From positions 95,484 to 159,483 of the IMG/VR virus record IMGVR_UViG_3300032138_000002: a stretch of DNA of 64,000 bases; one strand, written 5' to 3'. The position numbers and the translations under genes are program-made. The notes beneath the pieces are model-generated. The model was given only the letters and a program-made list of their open reading frames with translations, did no database searches and had not been told where the DNA came from. Of this stretch, positions 22,767-55,177 are shown in pieces. This stretch comes from a virus (lineage: Duplodnaviria > Caudoviricetes). Position 1 is the stretch's first letter. Each line of letters starts with the position of its first letter.

Positions 22767-23206
22767 CTTATTAACTCTTCCTTATAGTAAGCGGCTCTGT
22801 CGCTGCATATGCCCGCACAGTGCCTTAATTCCTCAGTTATTTCAGGAGGGGGTTTTACAGCTATCGAATTTTTAACCAAGGTTTGACCTGGGTATGTCCA
22901 AATATAACCCCTGTTAGTTAAAGCAAAATTATCAGTCTGATGCCAAAAACAATGGACGTCCAACCTCAGCAATCTTTCAAGGGCGTTTAAATTTTTGGCG
23001 TGACACCAGAAGTTTTTATTAAAAAGGAAGTTGGTTGGGATATATTGATCAGAACCATCATGTCCCAAATAAAAGCTCCCCTCTTTCCACCACACATCTA
23101 TTTCTACTTCAAACCCCTTATAAACTGCGTCTAAAATATAGTTGGGAGTATTTTCAAAAGCAGGCTGTGGGCCTATGATGTTGCCTCTATGGGCTATTAT
23201 TTTCAT
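22763..23206 (-). CDS. Glycerophosphodiester phosphodiesterase-like (PLC-like) protein
   Basis: IIAHRGN...ENT...VEIDVW...LGHD...WCHAKN...GICSD. Start at 23206 (ATGA overlap). Confidence 0.75.
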   Translation of the reverse strand: MKIIAHRGNIIGPQPAFENTPNYILDAVYKGFEVEIDVWWKEGSFYLGHDGSDQYIPTNFLFNKNFWCHAKNLNALERLLRLDVHCFWHQTDNFALTNRGYIWTYPGQTLVKNSIAVKPPPEITEELRHCAGICSDRAAYYKEELIR

Positions 23207-23946
23207 CCAATATTCCTGAGAATAAAATTCTCCATCATTATAACACATTCTGGGAGGGGTTGTTTAGCTGTGTTTATGGTTAAATCTGGGGTTTGGGGTT
23301 CTTCAAAGGGGTCTGAAATGCCAGTAAAATTATAGATCTTATCGGGGTGACCATCAGGTAGGAGCGCCTTAGCATATAACCCCTTTATATCTCTTTTCTT
23401 TACCGTCTCTAAATCGCATTTTATGTATATTGTTTTAACGCTAGAATCTTTTTTCTGGTTTTCTATTCTTATCTCTTCATAGGGGTTGATAGCAGCGATG
23501 ATTGATATTATGCTGTTTCTGGCTAATATTTTGCTCACAAAACTTAAACGCCTAATATTGTTGTTTCTGTCTTCTTTGGAAAAACCCAAGTCTTTGCACA
23601 GGTTTTCGCGATACTCGTCGCCGTCAATTACCTCTACCAAATAACCTTTTTTTCTCAGTCTCTGCGCTGTGTGCTGCGCTAGTGTGCTCTTGCCGGCACC
23701 AGATAAGCCCGTCATATGAAGTGAAATGCCTTTGGTTCGACCCCAACGAATGACAGCCCAAAATCGTTCATGATAAATATAGGCAAACAAAGTGACAATT
23801 TGGTGGAGCACACTAATGCTGACAGACGTGGCTGCTGAACTGGTAATAAAATATGAACAACATAATAGGCTCAAAAAGCCTAACAGTCTCCACGACAAAG
23901 ATTTAACTATACTGCGTCGTCGGGTATCAATCATCCAGATATCCAT
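23203..23946 (-). CDS. cysC: Adenylyl-sulfate (APS) kinase with N-terminal DUF2061-like membrane domain
   Basis: TGLSGAGKST P-loop, IDGD, LGFSKEDR..NIRR, RDIKGLY, FTGISDPFEEP. N-terminal RRSIVKSLSWR...HERFW. Confidence 0.9.
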   Translation of the reverse strand: MDIWMIDTRRRSIVKSLSWRLLGFLSLLCCSYFITSSAATSVSISVLHQIVTLFAYIYHERFWAVIRWGRTKGISLHMTGLSGAGKSTLAQHTAQRLRKKGYLVEVIDGDEYRENLCKDLGFSKEDRNNNIRRLSFVSKILARNSIISIIAAINPYEEIRIENQKKDSSVKTIYIKCDLETVKKRDIKGLYAKALLPDGHPDKIYNFTGISDPFEEPQTPDLTINTAKQPLPECVIMMENFILRNIG

Positions 23947-24754
23947 AGTGACGGAGCCATGGGCCGCACTCTGTCTCTATAAAAGCTATTTGTTCGTCGG
24001 TCAAAGTTTCTTTGTATCCCCCCACTTTGCCGTTATTTGATGTAATGTGTTCTTTTAACATTAACGTGGCCGAATATCGGGGGTCACTCCAATCACCAGA
24101 AGTCAACAAATTGTCCGTATCATCTTTAATGCCTTCCGCTTTCATGATAATCGACTTAAGTACCTCTTCTTTCATGGTATCGATCTCGGGAAAAAAGTTT
24201 CTCATCAAAGTTTTGAGTGTTTCAAGGGGGTCAACCTTATAATCCTCATAACACCATTCATAGCGTTTAACATATTTGTTTATATCAGGAATTGCTTCGT
24301 TATCGACATATTGCTGGACCTTGGAAAAATCCTTTTGCTTTGATGCGGCATACCACATCAGGTGTTCTTTCACTATGTTTTCGAACTCCTCTTGTGATAA
24401 TTCTACGTTTCCATGGTGTTCCCTTCTTTTACGCAACGCCGAGGCCGCAGTATCGCGGATATCACGACGTACGGTAATTAAAAAATCACACACGATATCT
24501 CCCGTATGTTCCTTTGCTATGAGTATATCCACGGGAGCAGGGGGTTCTTTTGTGTGATATTCACAATAATCCTGACTGAGGGCTACGGCGACGTTAAGTT
24601 GGCAGGTTTCGCAGAAAATTCGCATAAGATTGAGAAGCAGAGTGCTTCCAGATTGCGGCATTCCCCCTATACACACAATCGGTGGCCGTTTTTTTTGCCA
24701 TGTCTTTTTCCGCATTCGTGTCCAGATGTTATCGTCTTTCCAGGACAAGTCCAT
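23927..24754 (-). CDS. PAPS-dependent sulfotransferase-like protein
   Basis: GGMPQSGSTLL (5'-PSB loop), RRDIRDTAAS (3'-PB), YED, GKVGGYK; adjacent to cysC. Confidence 0.75.
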   Translation of the reverse strand: MDLSWKDDNIWTRMRKKTWQKKRPPIVCIGGMPQSGSTLLLNLMRIFCETCQLNVAVALSQDYCEYHTKEPPAPVDILIAKEHTGDIVCDFLITVRRDIRDTAASALRKRREHHGNVELSQEEFENIVKEHLMWYAASKQKDFSKVQQYVDNEAIPDINKYVKRYEWCYEDYKVDPLETLKTLMRNFFPEIDTMKEEVLKSIIMKAEGIKDDTDNLLTSGDWSDPRYSATLMLKEHITSNNGKVGGYKETLTDEQIAFIETECGPWLRHYGYLDD

Positions 24755-25467
24755 TATTGGTTCTCCAAAAAATATTTGAGGTCTTCAGGAGTACCTAGGC
24801 CCCACATTTTGTTAACATAAAATGGAATTAAAGTTTTTCCGTCTTCTAGCATTTCGTTATAAACCGGGGCAATATAATATTCCCCATTTACTCTCACGTT
24901 TTTTTCTATCATTTGGTGAGCATATTTAACGAACTCTGAGCCTCGTCGATACCAATATATACCACATGTGGCGATATTGGAAATAGGCCTTTTCTCAGCC
25001 ACCTCTGTAACAAAACCGCGAGAATTTGTCTTTACAAAGGACCATTTTGGGTGTACGGCATTGAACGTGAAGACCATCGAATCTACATCAGTTAAGTTCT
25101 TCAAAGTTTTAAAATTCTCGGCCTCGTACTCAATAAATTGATCAGAATTGGCGATTAATAAGTCCTCGTCGTCGTTAATAAGATCTTGAGCTAATAGGGC
25201 AGTGCAAGCCGCTCCTTCAGTTAACTCTTTTACCTCCACATGAGAACAGCGGCCATTTGTTATACGTTCCAGAGTATCTAAGAGACCGGCATACTTTTTT
25301 ACGTGATCGTGCCTTACTAAAAATATATATTCACAATCAAAATCTAGATTTTCTACCACCGTTTGGATCATGGGTCTTCCACGAACATCAATCAATGGTT
25401 TGGGAAAAGTATATCCCTCTTTGGTGAATCTACTGCCTTCACCCGCCATGGGTATTAAAACTTTCAT
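24754..25467 (-). CDS. Sugar-phosphate nucleotidyltransferase (NTP_transferase family)
   Basis: LIPMAGEGSRF...PKPLI, NSDQ, VAEK, NGEYYIAPVYN, LGTPEDL. Confidence 0.85.
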   Translation of the reverse strand: MKVLIPMAGEGSRFTKEGYTFPKPLIDVRGRPMIQTVVENLDFDCEYIFLVRHDHVKKYAGLLDTLERITNGRCSHVEVKELTEGAACTALLAQDLINDDEDLLIANSDQFIEYEAENFKTLKNLTDVDSMVFTFNAVHPKWSFVKTNSRGFVTEVAEKRPISNIATCGIYWYRRGSEFVKYAHQMIEKNVRVNGEYYIAPVYNEMLEDGKTLIPFYVNKMWGLGTPEDLKYFLENQ

Positions 25468-26083
25468 CTATAAATCTTTTAACCCCCTTTTTAATTACTT
25501 CGGTGGCATTGGTGACTTTCATTACACTACACCCGGATGCACGTGCAGCTTTTTCCCCTTTGGGGGAATCTTCTATTATCATAGCATTTTTAGGGACACA
25601 ATTAAAGTGTTTTAATACCTGAATATAACCTTCGGGGTCTGGTTTTGCATTAATCACATCTTCATTAGTTAAAAAGTACTCAAGATGCTCTAAAATACCA
25701 GCTTCAGTCAATACAAGTGAGGCCGTTTCTCGAATACTATTAGTAAAACACGCAATTCGGGCGTTATTGGATTTAAGCCATTGTATTAATTCAACTTTTT
25801 CCGGTCTTTCTTCGGATTGTGCTCTGATTATCTCTAGAGTGCGCTCTTGCTTAAAATCAAATATGTCTTGAACATTATCTTTTTCAATTTTATTGGCCTC
25901 CACCAGCATTTTTAATTTTATCTTAGTGGGGAGGCCGTTGTATATTTTATAATGTTCCTCTAGGGGAATCTCATAGTTACAAACATGTTTTAATGCAGCA
26001 TTGAATGCTTCTAAATGCCATCCGCAAGCATCTACCAACACCCCGTCCATATCAAAAATAACTAGTTCTGGAAACCTAGACAT
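25439..26083 (-). CDS. HAD-family phosphatase (beta-PGM-like)
   Basis: FDMDGVLVD, TNS, KPDPEGY, IEDS. Likely start at 26083. Confidence 0.85.
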   Translation of the reverse strand: MSRFPELVIFDMDGVLVDACGWHLEAFNAALKHVCNYEIPLEEHYKIYNGLPTKIKLKMLVEANKIEKDNVQDIFDFKQERTLEIIRAQSEERPEKVELIQWLKSNNARIACFTNSIRETASLVLTEAGILEHLEYFLTNEDVINAKPDPEGYIQVLKHFNCVPKNAMIIEDSPKGEKAARASGCSVMKVTNATEVIKKGVKRFIDESFNTHGG

Positions 26084-26849
26084 TTGTACCTCTAGCCGCT
26101 GGGTCAATATTGTATTCATCCAGGAGACTTTTAAGTTTTTTAGGATAACACTGAAAATCCCATTTACCTTTTACGACCGCGGTGGCAAAATAAGGATAAA
26201 CATGACTATCCCAGTGAAAGTCTCCTCGCATTTGTTCGCCTTCCATAAAAGTCATCGCGCACTTAAATGCATGTTTTGCACAAACAATATTACTGTTGGC
26301 TTCGAATTTCCATATATTCTCACCGGGAGTTTCCTCATAGATACGCATTAAATTTTCTTTTTTACACAATGTGGGTTGAATTGCGAATTGTAAATCCGGA
26401 GGGCAATAAAAAACATTCTCGTGAAGCATGGTGGGAGTTAAGGTTTCATATGGTCTGTACGTTGCCCGTACAAATTTAATAAAATCAAGTTGTTGTTCTT
26501 TTATCAAGCTACAACATTTCTCTATTATTTGATTATTCGGCTCCCCATATAAAAACATATCCTCATGGTGAAATACAATTATGTCTTCTTCGACTTGCTG
26601 AATACCTTGCAAAACGCGTTGTTGATAGGGCAGTGCATCGTCATACCGCAACAAAACCCAGTCGGAATTTAAATCCGGCGTGCTTTGGTCAGCAATTAGA
26701 TATTTCTTTACTTCCGGCAAAAACTTGTCCATTTGAGCGAACATGGGTTTCCAGATATCTGAATAATCTGAATGGGAATAGAAAACGGCGGCGTACACTA
26801 GTATTCCTACAACAATGCCATGAAGTCTGCGTGGGCGGTGGCGCCACAC
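26076..26849 (-). CDS. Putative glycosyltransferase (GT-A-like)
   Basis: SHSDYSDIW, HHEDMFL, QPTL, WKFE, AVVKGKW; inside the glycan cluster. True start uncertain. Confidence 0.5.
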   Translation of the reverse strand: MWRHRPRRLHGIVVGILVYAAVFYSHSDYSDIWKPMFAQMDKFLPEVKKYLIADQSTPDLNSDWVLLRYDDALPYQQRVLQGIQQVEEDIIVFHHEDMFLYGEPNNQIIEKCCSLIKEQQLDFIKFVRATYRPYETLTPTMLHENVFYCPPDLQFAIQPTLCKKENLMRIYEETPGENIWKFEANSNIVCAKHAFKCAMTFMEGEQMRGDFHWDSHVYPYFATAVVKGKWDFQCYPKKLKSLLDEYNIDPAARGTNV

Positions 26850-27607
26850 TCATCCATTTGTTTAAAGAAATCAACGGATAAGCTTCGATTCACATCGTCG
26901 ATAAAAGGCGAGAACTTATCATGAGTTAATTCCTTTTTTTCGAACGTTAAAAGATGATCTATCTTTGTTTCTAGCACTTTGTCCCACACGCGTGTTCCGA
27001 TTGTTGGGATTGTTCCCAGTTCACACACATCCCGTAGACCTTTCACCGTACGCATTGAGCCGGCAATAATTTCTGCGCAGTCTGATTTACGCTTTTGAGC
27101 AAAAGCTACGTGTGCGGCAGCGTCCACTCCCTGCTCTTCCATCCGGCCGGGAATCAAACTAACATAACGGACATTATAAGTGAAACATGATAAGGCAGTT
27201 GAACAGTCGGCGACGCCGGTGACGTTTGTTTCCATAAAATTATTCAATTGGTCTACAACCTCAAGCACTCCGTGAAATGGGGGTATTTTTAGGCCTAGGC
27301 GTGTGGTGCCGTCTGTAAACTGACATATATACTCGGCCCATTTAACAATGTCATGAGGACACATCTCCGAATTTGGCGCTTGTACATATACGACGCCTTT
27401 GTTGTCGCCTCGTATTTTGGTTACAAGCGCACATAACTTCGGGAGATGTTCCGTCCATTGTTCTAGGCGATCCATATTTACCTTTTTAAATGCATTTGGA
27501 TTTGTGGTGATCCCGCGCACGTGAGTACTATCGACGGTATTTTTAAGGCGCCCCCAGACATTTTCGATATATTCTATATCGGCAGTATCAAAAAAGAAAT
27601 CAAACAT
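26807..27607 (-). CDS. Transaldolase/fructose-6-phosphate aldolase family protein (divergent)
   Basis: FDTAD, GITTNP, LKIP (Schiff-base Lys), NVT, YVS..GR, AGSMR. Confidence 0.8.
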   Translation of the reverse strand: MFDFFFDTADIEYIENVWGRLKNTVDSTHVRGITTNPNAFKKVNMDRLEQWTEHLPKLCALVTKIRGDNKGVVYVQAPNSEMCPHDIVKWAEYICQFTDGTTRLGLKIPPFHGVLEVVDQLNNFMETNVTGVADCSTALSCFTYNVRYVSLIPGRMEEQGVDAAAHVAFAQKRKSDCAEIIAGSMRTVKGLRDVCELGTIPTIGTRVWDKVLETKIDHLLTFEKKELTHDKFSPFIDDVNRSLSVDFFKQMDECGATAHADFMALL

Positions 27608-27965
27608 TTTTTTCCTCCTCGGCTTTTAATAATGTTTTTTTAACAGTGTCCCAATCAGTGAATTTTATTCCCTTATCATCTATAAAATAATCTACATGGG
27701 GTTTTCCAAACAATAACTCATCATAAGGGATGCAGTATTTGTCTAGCCAATCTAAAACAAGCTTCCCTTGATTTGCAATAATTCTTCCCACGTTGTTTTC
27801 ACAAGTTCTCATGTTTCGAGCAGTAAAAATGACAATATAATATCCACGTTGTTTTAAAAATTCTAATGTTTCTACAGCGTTAGGCAAAGGTTTTACATCA
27901 CGGTAACTCTGGTCTGCGGCTTTGGTCTCGCATATTGTCCCGTCTAAATCAACGCATATCTTCAT
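27600..27965 (-). CDS. Capsule-biosynthesis HAD phosphatase (EcbF/BcbF-like)
   Basis: CVDLDGTIC, FTARNM, WL...IPYDEL.FGKP..YFIDDK. Confidence 0.85.
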   Translation of the reverse strand: MKICVDLDGTICETKAADQSYRDVKPLPNAVETLEFLKQRGYYIVIFTARNMRTCENNVGRIIANQGKLVLDWLDKYCIPYDELLFGKPHVDYFIDDKGIKFTDWDTVKKTLLKAEEEKNV

Positions 27966-28953
27966 AATCTAACGCCTCGTTTAAAAGTTTGATACCAGTA
28001 GTATACATCACCGTTTGCCGGGGCAAGCTATCATAATGTCGCGAGCACATACCAATGTATATCAATCCTTGAATTAACTTAGCTCTATTATCTCTGAATC
28101 TGTCGAATTTATTAAACACTTTTTTAATTTTTTCTTTATTATCATTTGCAAAGGTAACCTGAAAGTGGTTTAAGTCTTTATTCTCTTCTAACTCAAATTC
28201 ATCAAAAATAATATATTCATATCCCCCTTCGAAAGAATGAACAAGTTTAGCTATATCATAGAGTGGATCACCAAACACACCGTCCTCACCAAAATGCCCG
28301 CGAGGGTCTACGAATTTTAACAAATGGGTCTGAGTTTTTGCATTTACCCCACAAAGAATATTCGAAAAACAAAAATCTCCATGAATAACCGAAAGTTGAC
28401 GCAAAGGCGTTAAATAATGTCGAATAAGTTCCTGTAGCTGATTCCATAAACAGTGGAAGTTCGCATAGGAGCGTCCGTCGATAATAAGTTTTTGATGGGT
28501 GGCTATGACTGCAAATTTAGGGTTTTCTAGTAATTCTTTATAATAACGTTCCGTTTTGCCAATGTACATTGCTTCTGCGTACGCTGTGAAATCGTCGTTT
28601 TTATGGGTTGTTACAAAAGAATCTAAAGCGTCGTTAATACCCGATGCAACATTTTCCCAAAAGGCTTGATCGAAATCCTCGTATACCATATAATCACCCA
28701 GATTATTATAAGCGTAGTACTCTAATTCCATCGAATGCTCCCCATCTTCATGTGAAGATTTGCGAAATCTAGGGAAAAAGATAGAGTGCGGTGTCGTCTC
28801 TATATCTTTATAATAATTTATTTCATCAAAGAGGCGTGTTTCGCGGCTTCGTTTCGTTATGGTTCCTAACGATGAGTCAATCGAAAACGAATTATAGGCT
28901 CTCGTTATATGCTGCTTCATAGACTTCCTCGATGGACAAGATCGATAAGCCAT
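27949..28953 (-). CDS. Sugar kinase, aminoglycoside-phosphotransferase/choline-kinase fold (BcbE/KfoE kinase-like)
   Basis: RAYNSF, DEINYY, IHGDFCFSNIL, FVDPRG, GDPLYDIAKL. Likely start about 28920. Confidence 0.75.
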   Translation of the reverse strand: MAYRSCPSRKSMKQHITRAYNSFSIDSSLGTITKRSRETRLFDEINYYKDIETTPHSIFFPRFRKSSHEDGEHSMELEYYAYNNLGDYMVYEDFDQAFWENVASGINDALDSFVTTHKNDDFTAYAEAMYIGKTERYYKELLENPKFAVIATHQKLIIDGRSYANFHCLWNQLQELIRHYLTPLRQLSVIHGDFCFSNILCGVNAKTQTHLLKFVDPRGHFGEDGVFGDPLYDIAKLVHSFEGGYEYIIFDEFELEENKDLNHFQVTFANDNKEKIKKVFNKFDRFRDNRAKLIQGLIYIGMCSRHYDSLPRQTVMYTTGIKLLNEALDYEDMR

Positions 28954-30292
28954 TATTCACCGCAAATTTGTTAAGATCGCCGCCTTTTGTCATCGTCCCA
29001 TCGTCATTCATAATTTCACAAATAATAGCAGCCGGTTTAAGACCCGCTAGTTTCATTAATTCTACAGAGCCTTCCGTGTGCCCTCTGCGCTCCTTCAGGA
29101 GGCCGTCACGTGCCCTCAGGGGGAACAGGTGGCCTGGGCGTGTAAGGTCGTCAGGCTTTGACGTGGGGTCCAGCAATACTTGAAGAGTAACCAGCCGATC
29201 GTACACTGACATGCCCGTAGTTGTGCCGTGCTTTGGGGCACCATCAACCGATACGGTAAACGGAGTTTCGTTAGCATCCGTATTATTCTCAACCATGGGT
29301 GGAATTTCCAAACGCTTAAGATCGGCGTCCGTCATGGGCACACACATCAACCCCTTCGCTTTATTCATGGTAAAAACAAGGTTTTCGACGGATGCGCGTT
29401 CGGCAGCGATCACAATATCCCCCTCATTTTCGCGATCATATTCATCCACCAAAATAATTGGTTTCCCTTGTCTAAGTTCTTCGAGGGCGTTTTGCATTTT
29501 TCTGCTTTTAATCATTTCATTTTCCTTTGTAGCTGATTTGGCAATAAAAATGTCTACTTTGCTAGACATTTTTTTAATTTCTAACCATGTTTCAAATTCG
29601 GCGAGGCTTTCTGGAGTGTCCATCGATCTCATTTCTAGAATATTGTAATCGAAGATATTCTTACCGGCTGCAATTGCTTCATTAAAAACTGGTGAAATAT
29701 AAAATTCGTTATTAACACGAATATTTTTGGTGATCATGGAATTGGCAAATTCTATAAAATCGGATCCGTGGCGCCAATAAAAGGCGCCCGCCAAGGCTGT
29801 TGTAGAAATAACTTCCTTTTCAGCTACTCGATTTACGCGGCCACCATCACCAACCTCGGCATAACTCCATGATTTATTTCCGCTCTTATCATTAAAAGTA
29901 AAAATCATTCCGTCGATGTCTGGATTGTTGATTGTTGTAGTAAATGTTTCCGTTTCCCAGAGGAAATAGTTATCACAATTGACAATCATTAGCTCTTCGT
30001 CGTTGTCGATATGGCGCGCCGCTAACAATGCTGTACAAGCTTGGCCGTCGGTTATACCATCTGCTACCACAAGTCGGCAATCGGGGACAATTTGTTTCAG
30101 TGTTTGATCGATATGATATTTATCGATATGTTCTTTCTGTACAATAAAAATATATTGCCCCTCTATGTTTAAACTCTCCACAACGCGTTGTATCATTGGT
30201 TCGCCGGCGATGTCGATTAGGGGCTTAGGTAAACTATACCCCACTTCTTTAAAACGCTTTCCGGCGCCTGCCATTGGTATTAATATATTCAC
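28892..30292 (-). CDS. ribB: Fusion: sugar-phosphate nucleotidyltransferase plus 3,4-dihydroxy-2-butanone-4-phosphate synthase (RibB)
   Basis: N-terminal LIPMAGAGKRF...PKPLI, NCDN, VAEK, NNEFYISPVFN. C-terminal DEYDRENEGD, GLMC, FTVSVD, TTGMS..DR, RPGHLFPL, RRGHTEG, CEIMNDDGTM. Likely GTG start at 30292. Confidence 0.9.
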   Translation of the reverse strand: MNILIPMAGAGKRFKEVGYSLPKPLIDIAGEPMIQRVVESLNIEGQYIFIVQKEHIDKYHIDQTLKQIVPDCRLVVADGITDGQACTALLAARHIDNDEELMIVNCDNYFLWETETFTTTINNPDIDGMIFTFNDKSGNKSWSYAEVGDGGRVNRVAEKEVISTTALAGAFYWRHGSDFIEFANSMITKNIRVNNEFYISPVFNEAIAAGKNIFDYNILEMRSMDTPESLAEFETWLEIKKMSSKVDIFIAKSATKENEMIKSRKMQNALEELRQGKPIILVDEYDRENEGDIVIAAERASVENLVFTMNKAKGLMCVPMTDADLKRLEIPPMVENNTDANETPFTVSVDGAPKHGTTTGMSVYDRLVTLQVLLDPTSKPDDLTRPGHLFPLRARDGLLKERRGHTEGSVELMKLAGLKPAAIICEIMNDDGTMTKGGDLNKFAVNNGLSILSIEEVYEAAYNESL

Positions 30293-30294
30293 TT

Positions 30295-31176
30295 TTATTC
30301 CCACTCCGTTTGAAGGGCTATAGCACTGTCCCATAACTCATTTTTTATTAGAAACCATTTCATCAGCAAAATACCATTGACAGCCAAATAATAAGGATAC
30401 TTATGTAAATTTTTACTGCGTTCCTCCGGAGGTTTTGTTTTTTCGTTGCTCCGAAAATCATTCATTTTAGATTCGGGCCAGCCTGATGTCACTGTCTCCC
30501 TATATTCACTTCTCAATTGCAAATAGTCTAACAACACTTTTTCATAAAGGCTGCAAAAAATATCCATGTTTTTGGAATTAGAATAGAACCACATATCCGC
30601 GGGCCCTTCATTGAAAAGATCCCAATCAGCTTGATATAAATAATTCATATCCAACGTCGGGTCAAAGTTGATACATTGACACGGAAAAGGATTTTGTTTT
30701 CCTGGGCCGCTCGTGGCGCGATTGATGCGACCTAAGTCGAAGCGTGCCTTAATAACACAGTCATATTTAAACCCTTGTTCTTTTTCATATTCTCGCTTAA
30801 GAACAAGCGACTGAGAAAGAGAATAATATTGACTTAACAACCTCTCTGGGCCCACGTACCCAGTACCAGAAGTCGACGTCATTGTCCAATTTCCCAAAAA
30901 ATTATAGGGATCGATATCTTCTCGACTTACCTCGTGTTCTTGAGCAATGGGTACAAAGTCAATTTGGGGCTCTATAATGTGTTTTCTAGGCTTATATAAA
31001 TCAACTAGTTTCTCCTCTAGATGGGGCTCCCAATTGTGAAAGAACACATCAATTTCGCAATCCTCCGAGCCATGGCTAAGAATATGTTTCTTAATATATT
31101 CAAACCCATCCATGCCCCGGGAGGAACTATCTTTCAGGGAATCGAAATAACCCGATAAACAGAGAGCGATTTTCAT
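30295..31176 (-). CDS. Putative glycosyltransferase-like protein
   Basis: MKIALCLSG...DVFFHNW...YDCVIKARFDL...DMWFY; directly upstream of the nucleotidyltransferase-RibB gene. Confidence 0.55.
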   Translation of the reverse strand: MKIALCLSGYFDSLKDSSSRGMDGFEYIKKHILSHGSEDCEIDVFFHNWEPHLEEKLVDLYKPRKHIIEPQIDFVPIAQEHEVSREDIDPYNFLGNWTMTSTSGTGYVGPERLLSQYYSLSQSLVLKREYEKEQGFKYDCVIKARFDLGRINRATSGPGKQNPFPCQCINFDPTLDMNYLYQADWDLFNEGPADMWFYSNSKNMDIFCSLYEKVLLDYLQLRSEYRETVTSGWPESKMNDFRSNEKTKPPEERSKNLHKYPYYLAVNGILLMKWFLIKNELWDSAIALQTEWE

Positions 31177-31202: not shown

Positions 31203-31230
31203 ATTATACCACAATTTGATTTTTTTTAAA
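31203..31230 (-). promoter_or_regulatory. Extended -10 sigma70-type promoter (TGgTATAAT) for the 31176-21801 sub-operon
   Basis: Minus strand TGGTATAAT at 31211-31203, in the only sizeable intergenic gap of the cluster; weak -35 (TTTAAA). Confidence 0.6.
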
Positions 31231-40751: not shown

Positions 40752-41096
40752 TTACTTTTTTTGTTTTCTAGAGCGGGACGCTTTTTTAGGCGTCTCCCCT
40801 ATCTTACCAGACTTTTGTGTGTTTGTCAAGGTTTTTTTCTCGAATATCCAGGTACCCGTGAGGGTTTCTGTAGATGTGTTTGAGACGTATCCGGGGCCCT
40901 CAACGCACGTGCCAAATTCAATATCCCGGGATGCGAGGATATCTCTTATTTGTGTAGCTTTAATGAGCACTGCATTGGGGTTTCGTTGTGGTGGAAAGTC
41001 GGGTCCGCGGGGATAACTTGGGGCCCCGTTTAGTTCCATGGTAACAGTGACCTCAATAGTCTTTTCTTGATTATTTTCTTTGATATCAATCTTCAT
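40752..41096 (-). CDS. Hypothetical protein with basic C-terminus
   Basis: 114-aa ORF coupled to the upstream gene. Confidence 0.6.
   Translation of the reverse strand: MKIDIKENNQEKTIEVTVTMELNGAPSYPRGPDFPPQRNPNAVLIKATQIRDILASRDIEFGTCVEGPGYVSNTSTETLTGTWIFEKKTLTNTQKSGKIGETPKKASRSRKQKK
40801..40829 (-). promoter_or_regulatory. Near-consensus sigma70 promoter embedded in a coding sequence
   Basis: Minus strand TTGACA (40829-40824), 17-nt spacer ending in TGg, TAAGAT (40806-40801); 55 nt upstream of the nuclease start. Confidence 0.7.
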
Positions 41097-41766
41097 TTTC
41101 TATTAATTCCTTTAGACGATTATACAATATTGGACTAACATCTTTAAGGTTTTTTTCATTGCCCAATATATATTCTTCGAATCCTTTTGCAAAGTATTCC
41201 CGCAGAGAGGTGATTGCGTAAGGCGATATAAATAGATTGTAAGTTAAAGTTAAGAGTACCGGATACCCTACAACGGTATATAAAAACATATCAAAATCCT
41301 GGTCATATTCTGGATCTAAGAAATATTTCGCCGGAATTTTAAAGTCGCGGTCGGTTAATATCTCGTAAAGCTTTTTGCGCTTTTCGATAAATTCATTCTC
41401 TAGCTGCATGTCAGCATACAGGTCTTGCGCAAAATATTCTTCAGCACAATGAGCGAATTCGTGAATCAGATCATCAATCAGATCTTCGGTAGACGATTGA
41501 GCGTTAGTTATATAAACGGTGCCGTCTTTGTAAAGAGCGTTTATTTGTCTTTCTTCAAACTCCGGAGTATGTCCGATGATAATCATCTCTAGATCGCGTA
41601 TTAGACGTCGAGGAACTGCCTCCTGCGCCTTTTTCAGCGCGCGGGGGACATTGATATTACTGGGTAACATGTCCTTAAGATAAACTGGAATATTGCCATA
41701 AATATAATAATATTCTTTTTTTGCCTTTTTTGATTTCTCGACAATATATGTTTTGATATCGCTCAT
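41086..41766 (-). CDS. Putative zinc metallopeptidase (HExxH)
   Basis: LIHEFAH and downstream EYFAKGFEEY, resembling ATLF-like zincins. Confidence 0.55.
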   Translation of the reverse strand: MSDIKTYIVEKSKKAKKEYYYIYGNIPVYLKDMLPSNINVPRALKKAQEAVPRRLIRDLEMIIIGHTPEFEERQINALYKDGTVYITNAQSSTEDLIDDLIHEFAHCAEEYFAQDLYADMQLENEFIEKRKKLYEILTDRDFKIPAKYFLDPEYDQDFDMFLYTVVGYPVLLTLTYNLFISPYAITSLREYFAKGFEEYILGNEKNLKDVSPILYNRLKELIENED

Positions 41767-51993: not shown

Positions 51994-52784
51994 AATTCTT
52001 CCTCAGTCGGAGAAACTTCAGCCTCGTATTCGGGTGTTGTTGGCTCGTCGACCATGGTTTTAAGTTGACCTTCCCATGTATCCATCCATAATTTCATATT
52101 AGTAATCAAATACGTGACATAAATTTCTTTATCGGTAGGGTTTCCTAAGCTATTAAACGTATCTAGAATTTGGTTTTCAGTTTCATTGATAACATCATAA
52201 GCCGCATCTCGCCCGGTTGGATCATCCGCGTACTTTTCGATTCCGAAATCAGTTCTTTTTTCATCGTCCGTGGGTTCTTTTTCAGTATCGATCCCCAAAT
52301 CCAGGAAAGCTTCTTCCTCGGCAGCTTCTTCAGTCTCAGGTTCATCGTCAGTAAATTCAACATCGATCTCAGTAAGATCTTCACTTGTGTCGCCCTCAAT
52401 GTCAACCACTTCTTCTGAGTCTATTTTTTCGATGGCTTTATCCATTACCTGATCGGGCAAAAGAAGTTCCTGAAGACCCTTTATTACATGCGCTCGGAAC
52501 GATTCTCTCTGTACTTCGGTGGTTTCCAAAGACTTATAAGCGGTTTCATATTTACCTAAGATCTTTTTAAGCAAAGTTTTCAAATAGTTGATACCAGTTG
52601 ATTTTTCAGGATATTTAGTAGAAATGTCGGATTCAACTAGTCTGCGAATAATCGTTCGCAATTGTTGTTCTTCTTGAAATAACGCTTGTTCCTGTGATGT
52701 TCTTTTCTCTTTTACAATTGCAATTGCCTTGCGAATTTGCGTACGCAATTTTAATTCTTCAACGAGTTGCTCTCTGTCAATCAT
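51990..52784 (-). CDS. Acidic hypothetical protein (possible head-associated)
   Basis: LRTQIRKAI and LRTIIRRLVE amphipathic motifs; STGINYL; YLITNMKLW. Confidence 0.7.
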   Translation of the reverse strand: MIDREQLVEELKLRTQIRKAIAIVKEKRTSQEQALFQEEQQLRTIIRRLVESDISTKYPEKSTGINYLKTLLKKILGKYETAYKSLETTEVQRESFRAHVIKGLQELLLPDQVMDKAIEKIDSEEVVDIEGDTSEDLTEIDVEFTDDEPETEEAAEEEAFLDLGIDTEKEPTDDEKRTDFGIEKYADDPTGRDAAYDVINETENQILDTFNSLGNPTDKEIYVTYLITNMKLWMDTWEGQLKTMVDEPTTPEYEAEVSPTEEEF

Positions 52785-55177
52785 TCTGTTTCTCCTATAA
52801 CCTTCAATAAGTAGTTCATTACTTCGTCAATAAACTCAGTATCTTCTTGCATTTTCCTTACTTTTCTTTTTGGCTTTGCCGCTGCTATCCCCACACTGCC
52901 TAGACCCATAGCGCTCGTTTCATCGCGTTTTCTTTTTTTGTGCTTTCGTCTCTTAACTCCCGGGAAGGGCGATTTTGTATACGCACCCTCTATATCCCCC
53001 GATTCGGGTGCTGGTGGTATTGCGCCAGGCCCCGCGCACTGTTCCCCCAATTCATCCCCATGCAGCAATTCAATATCATAGAATTCTTTGCCAAAATATT
53101 TCTTGGACTTTTTTCCCTCTTCCTCGAAAGCTCCGAAACCAACGGGGGCCGGCCCTACTTTCTTGGGGCGTTTCTTTGTGTAAGGAGGTCCGGGCTTTTG
53201 TTTTCCAGTCGAGAGCATCTTGTGCCAACTTTTTAAATAATTCTTTTTAGTGGGGCTCTTTTGGTAATCGCCTTCATCCAATAAATATTCCACCATATCC
53301 AAGAGGCTCTCGGCCACCATTTCTTTTTTTTTACCACCCAGCATGGCAAATATCTCTTCGGCATTGCCGCTCTTGATTGTCTCTGCGGGCATGTACTCTA
53401 AAAACTCTTCATAATTATTGTTAACGATAAACTGCCTTAGAAAACGGGCACTTAGCTGTTCTCCGGTGGAAGCTTGTGTAACAGGCGTTTCTACCACACG
53501 AACATTCACTCCTTCGGGTGCATACTTACGAACTTCCTCTCCAAACCTTCCTGCATCTTTTTCGCTCGTGAGCATAGAATATGTCTGCCCGGGCGAGGAA
53601 TAATACTGTAAAATATCAAAGGCTTTGCTGAGGGGGGTCGCTGATTTAGTTCCCTCATGGTTTAATTCGCCCTCTACCACCTCCACGAAATCGTAGTTGG
53701 TTATTCCGGCATCTTCTAAAATCATACCCCATATTATCATGGCAGTATTGTAATTGACGATGGTATCGCCGATCATTCTAGGGCTGTCGCCACCAGAGCC
53801 CATAATGATCAATATACGATCATTATTAGCGACAGATTTAACCATATCTAAGTGACCCCGATGAGGAGGCTTAAACCCTCCGGGTACTAATGCGATGGTT
53901 GTATCATTGTTCACATCGGTTTCATAATCTTTGACTTCCTCTTCCTCTTCTGTAAGATTTAAAGGTTTGCCCCCGCGACCATACCGGAAAAGTCCCAATA
54001 TTTGGTTCATTGGTGCGAAATTTCCAGTAAATTTATAGGTTTGCCCTCCGTAATCGAACACAAACCCTTCAACAGCAGTGGAAACGTTTTCAAGTTTCTT
54101 TAACTTCGCCATCTGTTGTTGTAATACCTTCATAGCTGTTTCGTCATTCGAACCTTCAATGGCTATAATAGCCTTTTGAAGTTCTTGACGTAAGCGCATC
54201 ACCTCCTTGGGATTGTCTAAAATAAATGCGCTATGAAGGCCTCTCAACATCTCCACCGAAAAATCATGAATGATTTCTTCCAGCGGTAATATTGCATTTT
54301 TCATTAAAGTTTTTTCAGACTTAACAACTTGTCTTACTTTTTCTTTATCTTCTCTATCCAGACCCTTAACAATATTATTAAACGTCACACCGGGTACTTT
54401 GAACAAGCGTTTTATAAGCAATTTCATATGCTTATCAGGTAAATCAACCCGAGATTCAATAAAAGGGGTGATACGAGCGATAATAAAATCAGCAATCGTT
54501 TGATTATCGCTTATTCCTACGGTATTTACCATTTGTTGAATTTGATCAACGGCCGAGTCAAGCGCTACATCATTACTAAGTGCCCTGAGATTTACAATTG
54601 CGTTTCTCTGAAGTGAGTAATCTTCATCTTCAACTGCACTCTGCATCTGTTTTAAGGCCTTATCTAAAGCCCGGACGTTTTTTGAGACGTCGACGTCTTT
54701 AATTGTGCCTGTTTCCTTATCGAATTGCGCGTGTCCCACCTGATGGATATTCAGGGTTTTTGTATCATAATTGATGATATTGGGGGTGCGCGGATCTTGG
54801 ACTTCCGCATTGTAATATATATTTGCGTCTGGTCCAAAGATGGCCATTTGGGTTTCGGGATCCAAGGACCGAACCGCTTTTTCAAAAGTTCTGAAAGCGT
54901 CCCCAAAAGCTTTTTGTAATTGAGGGTTGGGATGATCAGTAAACTTGTTGATTATATCTTCTACGCTTAATCCACCCGATTTGATGTTCCCTTTATTTCT
55001 TGCCGCCCGCGCCGAACCGTTTTGAACAGAATAAGAGATAAAGAGGTTTTGGCCATCGGTCTTCTCAGTACCCTCTAGTTCGCCCGCAGATGCGGCTGTA
55101 AGAACTTCAATGAGTTCCTTGAAGGTTAACTCATAGTTCTCGTAAAGATGCTGCATATGGCCAGCTACGCCACCCAT
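52781..55177 (-). CDS. Fusion of an RNA-ligase-like nucleotidyltransferase domain and an HxGH cytidylyl/adenylyltransferase domain
   Basis: TEKTDGQN, NAEV, VEGFVF, YKFTG (ligase motifs I, III, IV, V); PGGFKPPHRGH and LSARFLR (HxGH family). Confidence 0.65.
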   Translation of the reverse strand: MGGVAGHMQHLYENYELTFKELIEVLTAASAGELEGTEKTDGQNLFISYSVQNGSARAARNKGNIKSGGLSVEDIINKFTDHPNPQLQKAFGDAFRTFEKAVRSLDPETQMAIFGPDANIYYNAEVQDPRTPNIINYDTKTLNIHQVGHAQFDKETGTIKDVDVSKNVRALDKALKQMQSAVEDEDYSLQRNAIVNLRALSNDVALDSAVDQIQQMVNTVGISDNQTIADFIIARITPFIESRVDLPDKHMKLLIKRLFKVPGVTFNNIVKGLDREDKEKVRQVVKSEKTLMKNAILPLEEIIHDFSVEMLRGLHSAFILDNPKEVMRLRQELQKAIIAIEGSNDETAMKVLQQQMAKLKKLENVSTAVEGFVFDYGGQTYKFTGNFAPMNQILGLFRYGRGGKPLNLTEEEEEVKDYETDVNNDTTIALVPGGFKPPHRGHLDMVKSVANNDRILIIMGSGGDSPRMIGDTIVNYNTAMIIWGMILEDAGITNYDFVEVVEGELNHEGTKSATPLSKAFDILQYYSSPGQTYSMLTSEKDAGRFGEEVRKYAPEGVNVRVVETPVTQASTGEQLSARFLRQFIVNNNYEEFLEYMPAETIKSGNAEEIFAMLGGKKKEMVAESLLDMVEYLLDEGDYQKSPTKKNYLKSWHKMLSTGKQKPGPPYTKKRPKKVGPAPVGFGAFEEEGKKSKKYFGKEFYDIELLHGDELGEQCAGPGAIPPAPESGDIEGAYTKSPFPGVKRRKHKKRKRDETSAMGLGSVGIAAAKPKRKVRKMQEDTEFIDEVMNYLLKVIGETE

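Follow-up and report, generated by a model that had tools for sequence, protein, structure and literature searches.

A phage gene cassette that joins an Afh-like sugar-activation module to RibB and a divergent transaldolase-family aldolase

Known sugar-activation systems and the phage cassette

Phage HY126 makes UDP-arabinose by a short route in which an isomerase forms arabinose 5-phosphate from ribulose 5-phosphate, AfhE, a protein that combines a nucleotidyltransferase (NT) with a kinase, converts arabinofuranose 5-phosphate to arabinofuranose 1,5-bisphosphate, AfhF removes the 5-phosphate, and AfhE later makes UDP-arabinose (PMC13326640). The best structural match of AfhF homologues is PDB entry 1xpj (PMC13326640). 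In bacterial capsule loci, BcbE, BcbF and BcbG of Pasteurella multocida are linked to fructose side chains (PMC13552107), KfoE is called a fructosyltransferase (PMC13552107, PMC8858990), and a “BcbE-like” capsule protein of 241 amino acids (aa) has a nucleotide-diphospho-sugar-transferase fold (PMC11641403). Here we analyse a five-gene phage cassette in the last 64 kb (hereafter “the window”) of the 159,483-bp IMG/VR virus record IMGVR_UViG_3300032138_000002, whose completeness is estimated at ~90%. We found that this cassette is an Afh-like activation module with a novel front end, formed by RibB and an aldolase, that is undescribed in the literature searched; a search on the cassette itself (S-SKS1, ribB, transaldolase) returned nothing relevant.

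The cassette consists of five minus-strand open reading frames (ORFs) running from 31176 to 26807 of the window, each overlapping or abutting the next. They encode, in this order, a candidate transferase of 293 aa that is GT-A-like and related to DUF7796 (30295-31176); a fusion of 480 aa (28892-30334), in which an NTP_transferase-type NT domain at about residues 14-250 (29585-30334; PF00483, PF12804) is joined to a RibB (DHBP_synthase) domain (28892-29500; PF00926, TIGR00506); a kinase of 334 aa with an APH/choline-kinase fold, weakly matching PF01636 and a candidate for an anomeric sugar-phosphate kinase (27949-28953), which probably starts at Met12 (nucleotide 28920), from where databases call the gene; a small HAD phosphatase of 121 aa of the BcbF/AfhF/1xpj type (27600-27965; TIGR01689); and a divergent class I aldolase of 266 aa of the transaldolase/fructose-6-phosphate aldolase (TAL/FSA) family (26807-27607; PF00923, TAL_FSA). 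An earlier note on this DNA, made from its letters and ORFs, had described five abutting or overlapping genes that include an NT-RibB fusion; the ORF coordinates agree with that layout in every detail that can be checked, and the identity of the fusion is borne out by the domain matches detailed below.

We compared 39 loci, namely the window, Synechococcus phage S-SKS1 and 37 loci from an alignment-based scan of IMG/VR with the aldolase, whose relatives in these 37 loci are 38-74% identical to it. At 95% aldolase identity the 39 loci amount to 27 distinct ones, and at 60% to 16 lineages. All 39 loci have RibB, the kinase and the aldolase side by side, and the HAD phosphatase and the NT are each found within 8 kb on either side in 38, the locus without the HAD being a different one from the locus without the NT. 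The cassette of S-SKS1 has the same arrangement as that of the window. In most lineages, NT and RibB are separate genes and the order is RibB-kinase-NT-HAD-aldolase, and the parts are fused to each other in various combinations: NT with RibB in the window, S-SKS1 and others, NT with HAD in loci L032 and L039, and HAD with aldolase in the more distant P0409. Relatives of the 293-aa protein occur in 36 of the 39 loci, often as two copies, and a member of the SDR epimerase/dehydratase family lies near the cassette in 29. This association is far beyond chance and, because the co-occurrence is strict and the fusions among the parts are varied, we conclude that the cassette is one functional module, not a chance neighbourhood, and a mobile one common to diverse phages. 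Bacterial genomes scanned with the aldolase, at a sensitivity that reaches close relatives only, gave no cassette and a single ordinary Virgibacillus transaldolase at 28% identity.

Judged by its equivalog-level match, the RibB domain is a canonical 3,4-dihydroxy-2-butanone 4-phosphate (DHBP) synthase. It matches PF00926 at 2.2e-72 and TIGR00506 at 218.4 bits (cut-off 177.45), scores 204 bits against the solved Vibrio cholerae RibB and keeps the DRENEGD, PFTVSV, RPGH.FPL and GHTEG motifs in the alignment. With this match and these active-site motifs it resembles the RibB of the riboflavin pathway, from which it differs in being fused to a sugar NT and in its genomic setting: it is the sole DHBP synthase in the genome, where neither RibA nor lumazine synthase was found. 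Riboflavin synthesis is thus not the context of RibB here, and what it produces presumably goes into a glycan precursor instead. The NT domain matches PF00483 (3.1e-08) and PF12804 (8.3e-07), has weak NCBIfam matches to RmlA-long, GlmU and MurU, and is 48-49% identical to stand-alone NTs of cyanomyoviruses.

The relationship of the remaining enzymes to the Afh route was visible at several levels. The kinase reaches 22.1 bits (1.4e-4) against PF01636, a weak match under the cut-off of 23.2, and some of its homologues carry PF01636. Its Atlas model aligns at TM scores of 0.81-0.91 (query-normalised) with APH-type proteins that stand alone and, over their C-terminal halves, with bacterial proteins of ~510-550 aa; several of these carry NTP_transferase plus APH, some are named “capsular biosynthesis protein” or “WeoK”, and some of the bacterial NT-kinase fusions are located in polysaccharide loci. 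The kinase likewise matches PHROGs 24015 and 4098, which are NT-kinase fusions, over their C-terminal halves, and in tblastn the C-terminal part of an RB69-like “putative enzyme involved in UDP-arabinose biosynthesis” (29% identity, E 1e-8). For the small HAD, the match to TIGR01689 (EcbF-BcbF) of 86.1 bits (1.7e-24) marks it as related at a score below the curated threshold of 162, the PDB matches are 1xpj (8.5e-24) and 9iqw, a “capsule biosynthesis protein” (7e-7), and identity is ~30% to the phosphatase genes that adjoin the NT-kinase in RB69-like phages (Mosigvirus). By these matches, all three enzymes, kinase, HAD and NT, have homologues in phage AfhE/AfhF, and a module of the AfhE/AfhF type, with an APH-fold kinase, a 1xpj-type HAD and a MurU/LicC-like NT all adjacent, is present in the cassette.

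The cassette thus resembles the UDP-arabinose route of HY126, RB69 and DLP3 in being phage-encoded, in its predicted start from ribulose 5-phosphate (PMC13326640, PMC6024577) and in a kinase, a phosphatase and an NT that are homologous in sequence and structure. Unlike in that route, the kinase is not fused to the NT, which is joined instead to RibB or, in other lineages, to the HAD, and the cassette is set in a glycan island that lacks a ThyA-like enzyme for base modification. No SIS domain, as in arabinose-5-phosphate isomerase, was found in the genome; RibB and the aldolase occupy its place, and the sugar must be one other than arabinose.

When 401 Bacillota genomes were searched with the kinase, a single match emerged, a fusion of NT, APH kinase and SIS isomerase. 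This 699-aa protein (L042:9087-11186, genome G331) lies in a glycosyltransferase-rich locus, adjoining a WavE-family protein, and probably represents a bacterial NDP-arabinose-type pathway for a polysaccharide (NDP, nucleoside diphosphate). Since SIS is present in the Bacillota fusion and RibB with the aldolase here, the sugar-phosphate-forming front end appears to be the variable part of such systems.

A comparable logic operates in the pathways to GDP-D-glycero-alpha-D-manno-heptose (GmhA, HddA, GmhB, HddC) and of N-acetylmuramic acid (MurNAc) recycling (MupP, AmgK, MurU), where a sugar carrying its phosphate at the omega position is turned by an anomeric kinase and a HAD phosphatase into a 1-phosphate and then into an NDP-sugar. 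AmgK has the APH fold and MurU is of the NT type, whereas HddA is a GHMP kinase. The cassette shares this logic, and the window NT weakly matches the MurU type, but the sugars differ, as do the enzymes forming the sugar phosphates. We also observed that the small HAD is labelled “phosphoheptose isomerase” in S-SKS1 (NC_020851, 36761-37117), in many T4-like records and in PHROG 1238; this looks like a propagated misannotation of an AfhF/BcbF/1xpj-type HAD phosphatase.

The capsule loci offer a second comparison. With BcbE/F/G of P. multocida types B and E and KfoD/KfoE of E. coli K4, group 2 capsule systems that decorate their glycan with a ketose (PMC13552107), the cassette has in common a BcbF-like HAD and a GT-A-like protein of ~240-290 aa; it differs in RibB and the aldolase, which are not reported there, and in the TIGR01689 score of its HAD. 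The earlier note had called the HAD a BcbF phosphatase, which holds as far as kinship goes, the score lying below the curated threshold, and had taken BcbE/KfoE for a nucleotidyltransferase/kinase, which is probably wrong, as the literature gives BcbE a transferase fold and KfoE a fructosyltransferase role. A connection with capsule loci that add ketoses may still hold in some other form. From the published description of BcbE, which P. multocida needs for its fructose side chains (PMC13552107), the 293-aa family may correspond to that protein.

The 293-aa protein of the window has no Pfam or NCBIfam match; its homologues carry PF25072 (DUF7796). Its AlphaFold2 (AF2) model is of medium confidence (pLDDT 70, pTM 0.77). 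In a VIA comparison the model reaches Z scores of 8-10 against ArnC, GtrB and mannosylglycerate synthase, and equally against NTs of the IspD/GlmU type, and Foldseek weakly favours the glycosyltransferase (GT) families GT6 and GT8, with the GT6 enzyme BoGT6a at E 4.5e-4 and TM scores of 0.34-0.41. Within the family, D43, Y138-D139, R145 and D147 are invariant. These matches weakly support a nucleotide-diphospho-sugar-transferase-like fold and a candidate transferase; the description “GT-like” given earlier keeps this much from the model, which nucleotidyltransferases match as well.

A divergent branch of the TAL/FSA superfamily

The aldolase belongs to the TAL/FSA superfamily by its PF00923 match (38.1 bits, cut-off 27). 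Its AF2 model (pLDDT 97) is a TIM barrel that Foldseek aligns with decameric TAL/FSA structures (E ~3e-11, TM 0.76-0.79) and that fits sulfofructose transaldolase, Thermotoga maritima Tal and FSA equally well. Against TIGR00875, the FSA equivalog, it scores 30.5 bits, far under the cut-off of 245.95.

Catalytic residues were read in an alignment with E. coli TalB, FsaA, FsaB and cyanophage TalC. We found that the motifs quoted in the earlier note are correct: LKIP contains the Schiff-base lysine, Lys107, and the protein reads NVTGV where the references have NVTL.F and SLIPGR where they have SPFVGR or APYVNR. K107, D7 and the R155/S184/R186 phosphate site align with K132, D17 and R181/S226/R228 of TalB, and the Lys, Asp and phosphate-site residues are 93-100% conserved among 102 representatives of the family. 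Like other TAL/FSA enzymes, the aldolase thus combines a TIM barrel with the Schiff-base Lys, the catalytic Asp7, the Asn of TTNP (N36), the Asn and Thr of the NxT motif (N128, T130) and the Arg/Ser/Arg phosphate site, and with TAL it shares the donor-side Ser150. In contrast to TalB, FsaA/B, TalC and sulfofructose transaldolase, it has Ile or Leu152 in all 102 representatives where TAL has Phe and FSA has Tyr, Gly131 (also 102/102) for the Leu that follows the NxT Thr, and a C-terminal extension of ~45 residues. At the position of the TAL acid/base (TalB Glu96) it carries Gln76 (100/102), as in FSA. Asp134 is near-invariant, being Asp in 85 and Glu in 8 of the 102.

Quantum mechanics/molecular mechanics (QM/MM) work on FSA identified Tyr131 as the proton shuttle that protonates the acceptor carbonyl oxygen at C4, the donor being held by Asp6, Asn28 and residue 129 (PMC13259622). 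As the mark of an FSA we took its water network, which comprises Gln59 and Thr109 with the catalytic Tyr131: Gln and Thr are present in the aldolase, Tyr131 is replaced by Ile/Leu, and the protein does not qualify. Neither does it carry the classical transaldolase signature, a Glu acid/base with Phe at SPF. Given these residue roles in FSA (PMC13259622), the donor pocket and phosphate site appear conserved and the region around the acceptor carbonyl remodelled. By its residues, then, the aldolase is a member of the superfamily that lacks the defining catalytic features of both TAL and FSA.

This branch is widespread. A word-based search with the aldolase gave at least 281 clusters at 90% identity, to which marine surveys contributed many, and an exhaustive search of 1.84 billion representatives with the family profile returned only 374 proteins at E <= 1e-3, of which 115 reach E <= 1e-30. 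Members of full length score at least 113 bits, and the best full-length outsider among the matches listed scores 62 bits and is by Pfam a canonical TAL/FSA-type protein. At 50% identity the family falls into ~115 protein clusters, with Tara and other marine metagenomes supplying many of them. In a tree with TalB, FsaA/B, three cyanophage TalC-type proteins, one Bacillus-type Tal and the canonical TAL/FSA-type representative, the 53 rows of the family split from the references with an SH-aLRT of 100; the small reference set shows this separation and does not place the root. On this tree, the clade is separate from TalB, FSA and cyanophage TalC, and unlike known TAL/FSA enzymes it is always linked to RibB. 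The aldolase therefore does not group with TalC, as the earlier note had anticipated, and its synteny with the other genes recurs in 38 other phage loci. The contrast that the note drew with the carbon-rerouting role of cyanophage TalC is partly moot, as the phage has no psbA that we could find in its genome and its structural genes do not match those of cyanophages.

A proposed route to an unusual nucleotide sugar

We give somewhat better than even chances to a general scheme in which a RibB and aldolase front end starting from ribulose 5-phosphate feeds an Afh-like back end, followed by transfer by the GT-A-like protein. RibB enzymes convert ribulose 5-phosphate to DHBP and formate, and DHBP corresponds to glyceraldehyde 3-phosphate whose aldehyde hydrogen is replaced by methyl, which makes it the analogous methyl ketone. 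Under this hypothesis, the RibB domain would form DHBP and formate, and the aldolase, through the Schiff base on Lys107, would join a dihydroxyacetone-type C3 unit to the carbonyl of the C4 compound DHBP, the most economical product being a 4-C-methyl-branched 2-ketohexose 6-phosphate. The APH-fold kinase would yield a bisphosphate by phosphorylating the anomeric hydroxyl, the small HAD would remove the distal phosphate and the NT domain would form the NDP-ketose, an order of kinase, phosphatase and NT suggested by analogy with Afh. Finally, the adjacent GT-A-like, DUF7796-related protein would transfer the sugar, likely to a glycan built by the surrounding island. A 4-C-methyl ketose would fit the conserved donor and phosphate sites because the spacing from the Schiff-base carbon to the phosphate equals that of fructose 6-phosphate (F6P), and it would also fit the altered residues around C4.

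The scheme builds on what the sequences show: which domains the proteins contain, how strictly the genes occur together and how they are fused, that the aldolase forms a clade of its own with altered catalytic residues, and that the back end is homologous to Afh; from these we infer the use of DHBP by the aldolase, the identity of the sugar, the order of the steps, the nucleotide and the acceptor. That the specific sugar is a 4-C-methyl ketose is our leading guess, and a tentative one. We offer with equal caution the fuller proposal that the aldolase would be the first natural TAL/FSA enzyme with a ketone electrophile and would make a C-methyl-branched ketose phosphate without S-adenosylmethionine, which the Afh-like module would then convert to an NDP-ketofuranose destined for a glycan of the virion or of the host surface. 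Three other uses of DHBP were set aside: aldol donation through C3 would create a quaternary centre, donation through C1 would leave its phosphate out of reach of the conserved phosphate site, and use as a hydroxyacetone donor after dephosphorylation would release formaldehyde. The earlier note had proposed that the aldolase and RibB together build an unusual ketose that is then activated; the synteny in 38 other loci, the fusions, the position outside TalC and the signatures that match neither TAL nor FSA strengthen this idea and stop short of proving it.

Several points weigh against the proposed scheme. To our knowledge, no natural TAL/FSA enzyme accepts a ketone, and the reaction would be thermodynamically poor. 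The family lacks both the Glu of TAL and the Tyr of FSA, for which Asp134 is a candidate substitute only. NTs of this family also take non-sugar phosphates such as phosphocholine (LicC), so that DHBP could be activated directly. In addition, fusions indicate a shared pathway and not consecutive steps, the Pfam match of the kinase lies below its curated cut-off, and the assignment of the GT comes from a medium-confidence model whose Z scores of ~8-10 are also reached by nucleotidyltransferases.

Among the alternatives, the first is an ordinary ketose, with the aldolase supplying or balancing F6P, which would pass through the 2,6-bisphosphate and fructose 2-phosphate to NDP-fructofuranose, as capsules with Bcb- and Kfo-type fructose decoration may do, and with RibB serving a separate purpose for the same glycan. 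The donor and phosphate sites of the aldolase are indeed F6P-like, the link of BcbE/BcbF/BcbG to fructose side chains (PMC13552107) and the size (~241 aa) and fold of BcbE (PMC11641403), similar to those of the 293-aa family, point the same way, and the HAD is BcbF-like (TIGR01689 1.7e-24; 9iqw), albeit with its TIGR01689 score under the cut-off. However, a RibB that is present in all 39 loci and fused to the NT is left unexplained, and so is the need for a remodelled aldolase without Glu and Tyr to make F6P, which is an abundant host metabolite. We regard this alternative as unlikely.

A second alternative dispenses with the ketose as the destination of DHBP. DHBP is a monoester like glycerol 3-phosphate, and the NT, which has weak matches to IspD, CTP_transf_3 and LicC-type enzymes that act on alkyl or polyol phosphates, could convert it to NDP-dihydroxybutanone for a phosphodiester decoration of a glycan, as in teichoic acids; the kinase, HAD and aldolase would then serve a second sugar. 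The NT-RibB fusion in several lineages and the second NT and HAD pair nearby in the phage agree with this, but RibB and NT are separate in most lineages, NT-HAD and HAD-aldolase fusions also occur, the aldolase present in 39 of 39 loci is left without a role, and the Afh route is known to run kinase, HAD and NT as one unit of three steps (PMC13326640). On this balance direct activation of DHBP seems improbable to us.

A third alternative concerns the target, the NDP-sugar being placed on phage DNA, as with the arabinosyl-5-hydroxycytosine of RB69-like phages. Those characterised enzymes that are most closely homologous to the kinase, HAD and NT do serve arabosylation of phage DNA (PMC13326640, PMC6024577), two GT4 genes of the island weakly match “GT4-conflict”, and a PD-(D/E)XK nuclease follows the island. 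The ~90%-complete genome, however, yielded no pyrimidine hydroxylase or hydroxymethylase of the ThyA/ThyX type, the neighbours are of glycan type here and in other loci, and bacterial NT-kinase fusions occur in polysaccharide loci. Because of the glycan-type neighbours and the missing ThyA/ThyX homologue, a glycan built by the surrounding island is the likelier target, and we hold DNA modification to be quite doubtful. Finally, the idea of ordinary auxiliary metabolic genes that are neighbours by chance, with TalC-like carbon rerouting and a RibB boost to riboflavin, draws on the TAL_FSA and PHROGs “transaldolase” labels and on a canonical RibB, and is most improbable in view of an aldolase that lies outside the TalC/FSA/TalB references, lacks the TAL Glu and Phe and scores 30.5 against 245.95 for TIGR00875, of the absence of RibA and lumazine synthase, and of the strict synteny and the fusions.

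If the proposed scheme is true, RibB serves a second biological purpose besides riboflavin synthesis, a third catalytic type, without the TAL Glu and the FSA Tyr, exists in the transaldolase superfamily, and phages make a nucleotide sugar that is absent from current glycan inventories. The logic of Afh would be generalised to a variable sugar-phosphate front end and a conserved kinase/phosphatase/NT back end, which may also explain the activation of fructofuranose in capsule loci. A ketone-accepting aldolase would be of interest for branched-sugar biocatalysis. With the cassette present in the cultured phage S-SKS1 (Synechococcus WH7803), the prediction is directly testable.

The surrounding island and the phage

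The cassette lies within an island of ~18 kb that also carries an SDR epimerase/dehydratase, an APS (adenosine 5'-phosphosulfate) kinase, a sulfotransferase-like protein, a second NT and HAD pair, methyltransferases, a DegT-type (aminotransferase) fragment, a GNAT protein, a UDP-GlcNAc 2-epimerase, one GT2 and two GT4 glycosyltransferases. Other loci carry GT2, GT10, GT11 and GT25 together with sugar C-methyltransferase-like genes.

Directly downstream of the cassette, on the minus strand at 24754-26849, are a virus-only protein of 257 aa (probable start Met36), a beta-phosphoglucomutase-like HAD of 226 aa and a stand-alone NT of 237 aa, a trio that stays intact in the closest relatives (8 loci). 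At 47-49% identity, the NT matches HAD-adjoining NTs in many cyanomyoviruses (S-CAM9, S-PRM1, S-8S5x), and this set of genes may make a second NDP-sugar. At 23203-24754, also on the minus strand, the APS kinase, which has an N-terminal DUF2061 membrane domain, overlaps the sulfotransferase-like gene, whose match is weak (PF00685, 2e-4, below cut-off); the pair suggests a supply of PAPS (3'-phosphoadenosine 5'-phosphosulfate) for sulfation of the glycan.

Further genes recur beside the cassette in other loci. A RuBisCO-large-subunit-like protein of 409 aa (PF00016, 7.6e-33) lies just downstream of it at L021:9855-11084 and in L022-L024, L028 and L029. RuBisCO-like proteins act on ketose (bis)phosphates and diketones, and this one may process an intermediate of the pathway in that sublineage. 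A methyltransferase adjoins the cassette in S-SKS1 (SWZG_00045, L001:12908-13930) and in 9 other loci, for example at L007:8816-9926; it carries the C-terminal domain of sugar C-methyltransferases (PF08484, 5.4e-08), which hints at further branching or methylation of NDP-sugars in those loci.

An overall kinship of the phage to S-SKS1 was considered and rejected, as its structural genes match neither S-SKS1 nor other cyanophages. The phage should not be taken for a cyanophage. A 576-aa protein of the window had no phage match, and PhoH was uninformative. A 798-aa protein (52781-55177, minus strand) shares 29% identity over its N-terminal half with a “cytidylyltransferase like protein” from Microcystis phage Mel-JY01; the protein also matches uncultured jumbo phages of ~460-480 kb, and no others. 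Since other large genes of the window have no phage match, this phage has only distant relatives among those in culture. A 226-aa protein (41086-41766, minus strand) weakly matches near its C-terminus the anthrax lethal-factor N/C domain (PF07737, 3.3e-05, 24.1 bits against 27.4), which may be a mere metalloprotease-like motif.

Upstream of the cassette, the earlier note had placed an extended -10 promoter. The motif itself, TGGTATAAT (TGgTATAAT), is present at 31203-31211 on the minus strand, in the 66-nt gap between the stop of a methyltransferase gene and the start of the 293-aa gene, the sole sizeable gap upstream of the cassette, and a consensus scan reads TTTAAA-16-TATAAT with TG at this place. 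The region holds 72 promoter-like sites compared with 51.7 +/- 7.5 in shuffles, and the motif counts as a consensus match and no more. On the plus strand, a 145-aa ORF (29211-29648) runs antisense to the RibB domain and looks “conserved” in 14 loci; rather than a gene, it is most likely a shadow cast by the conservation of the RibB coding sequence.

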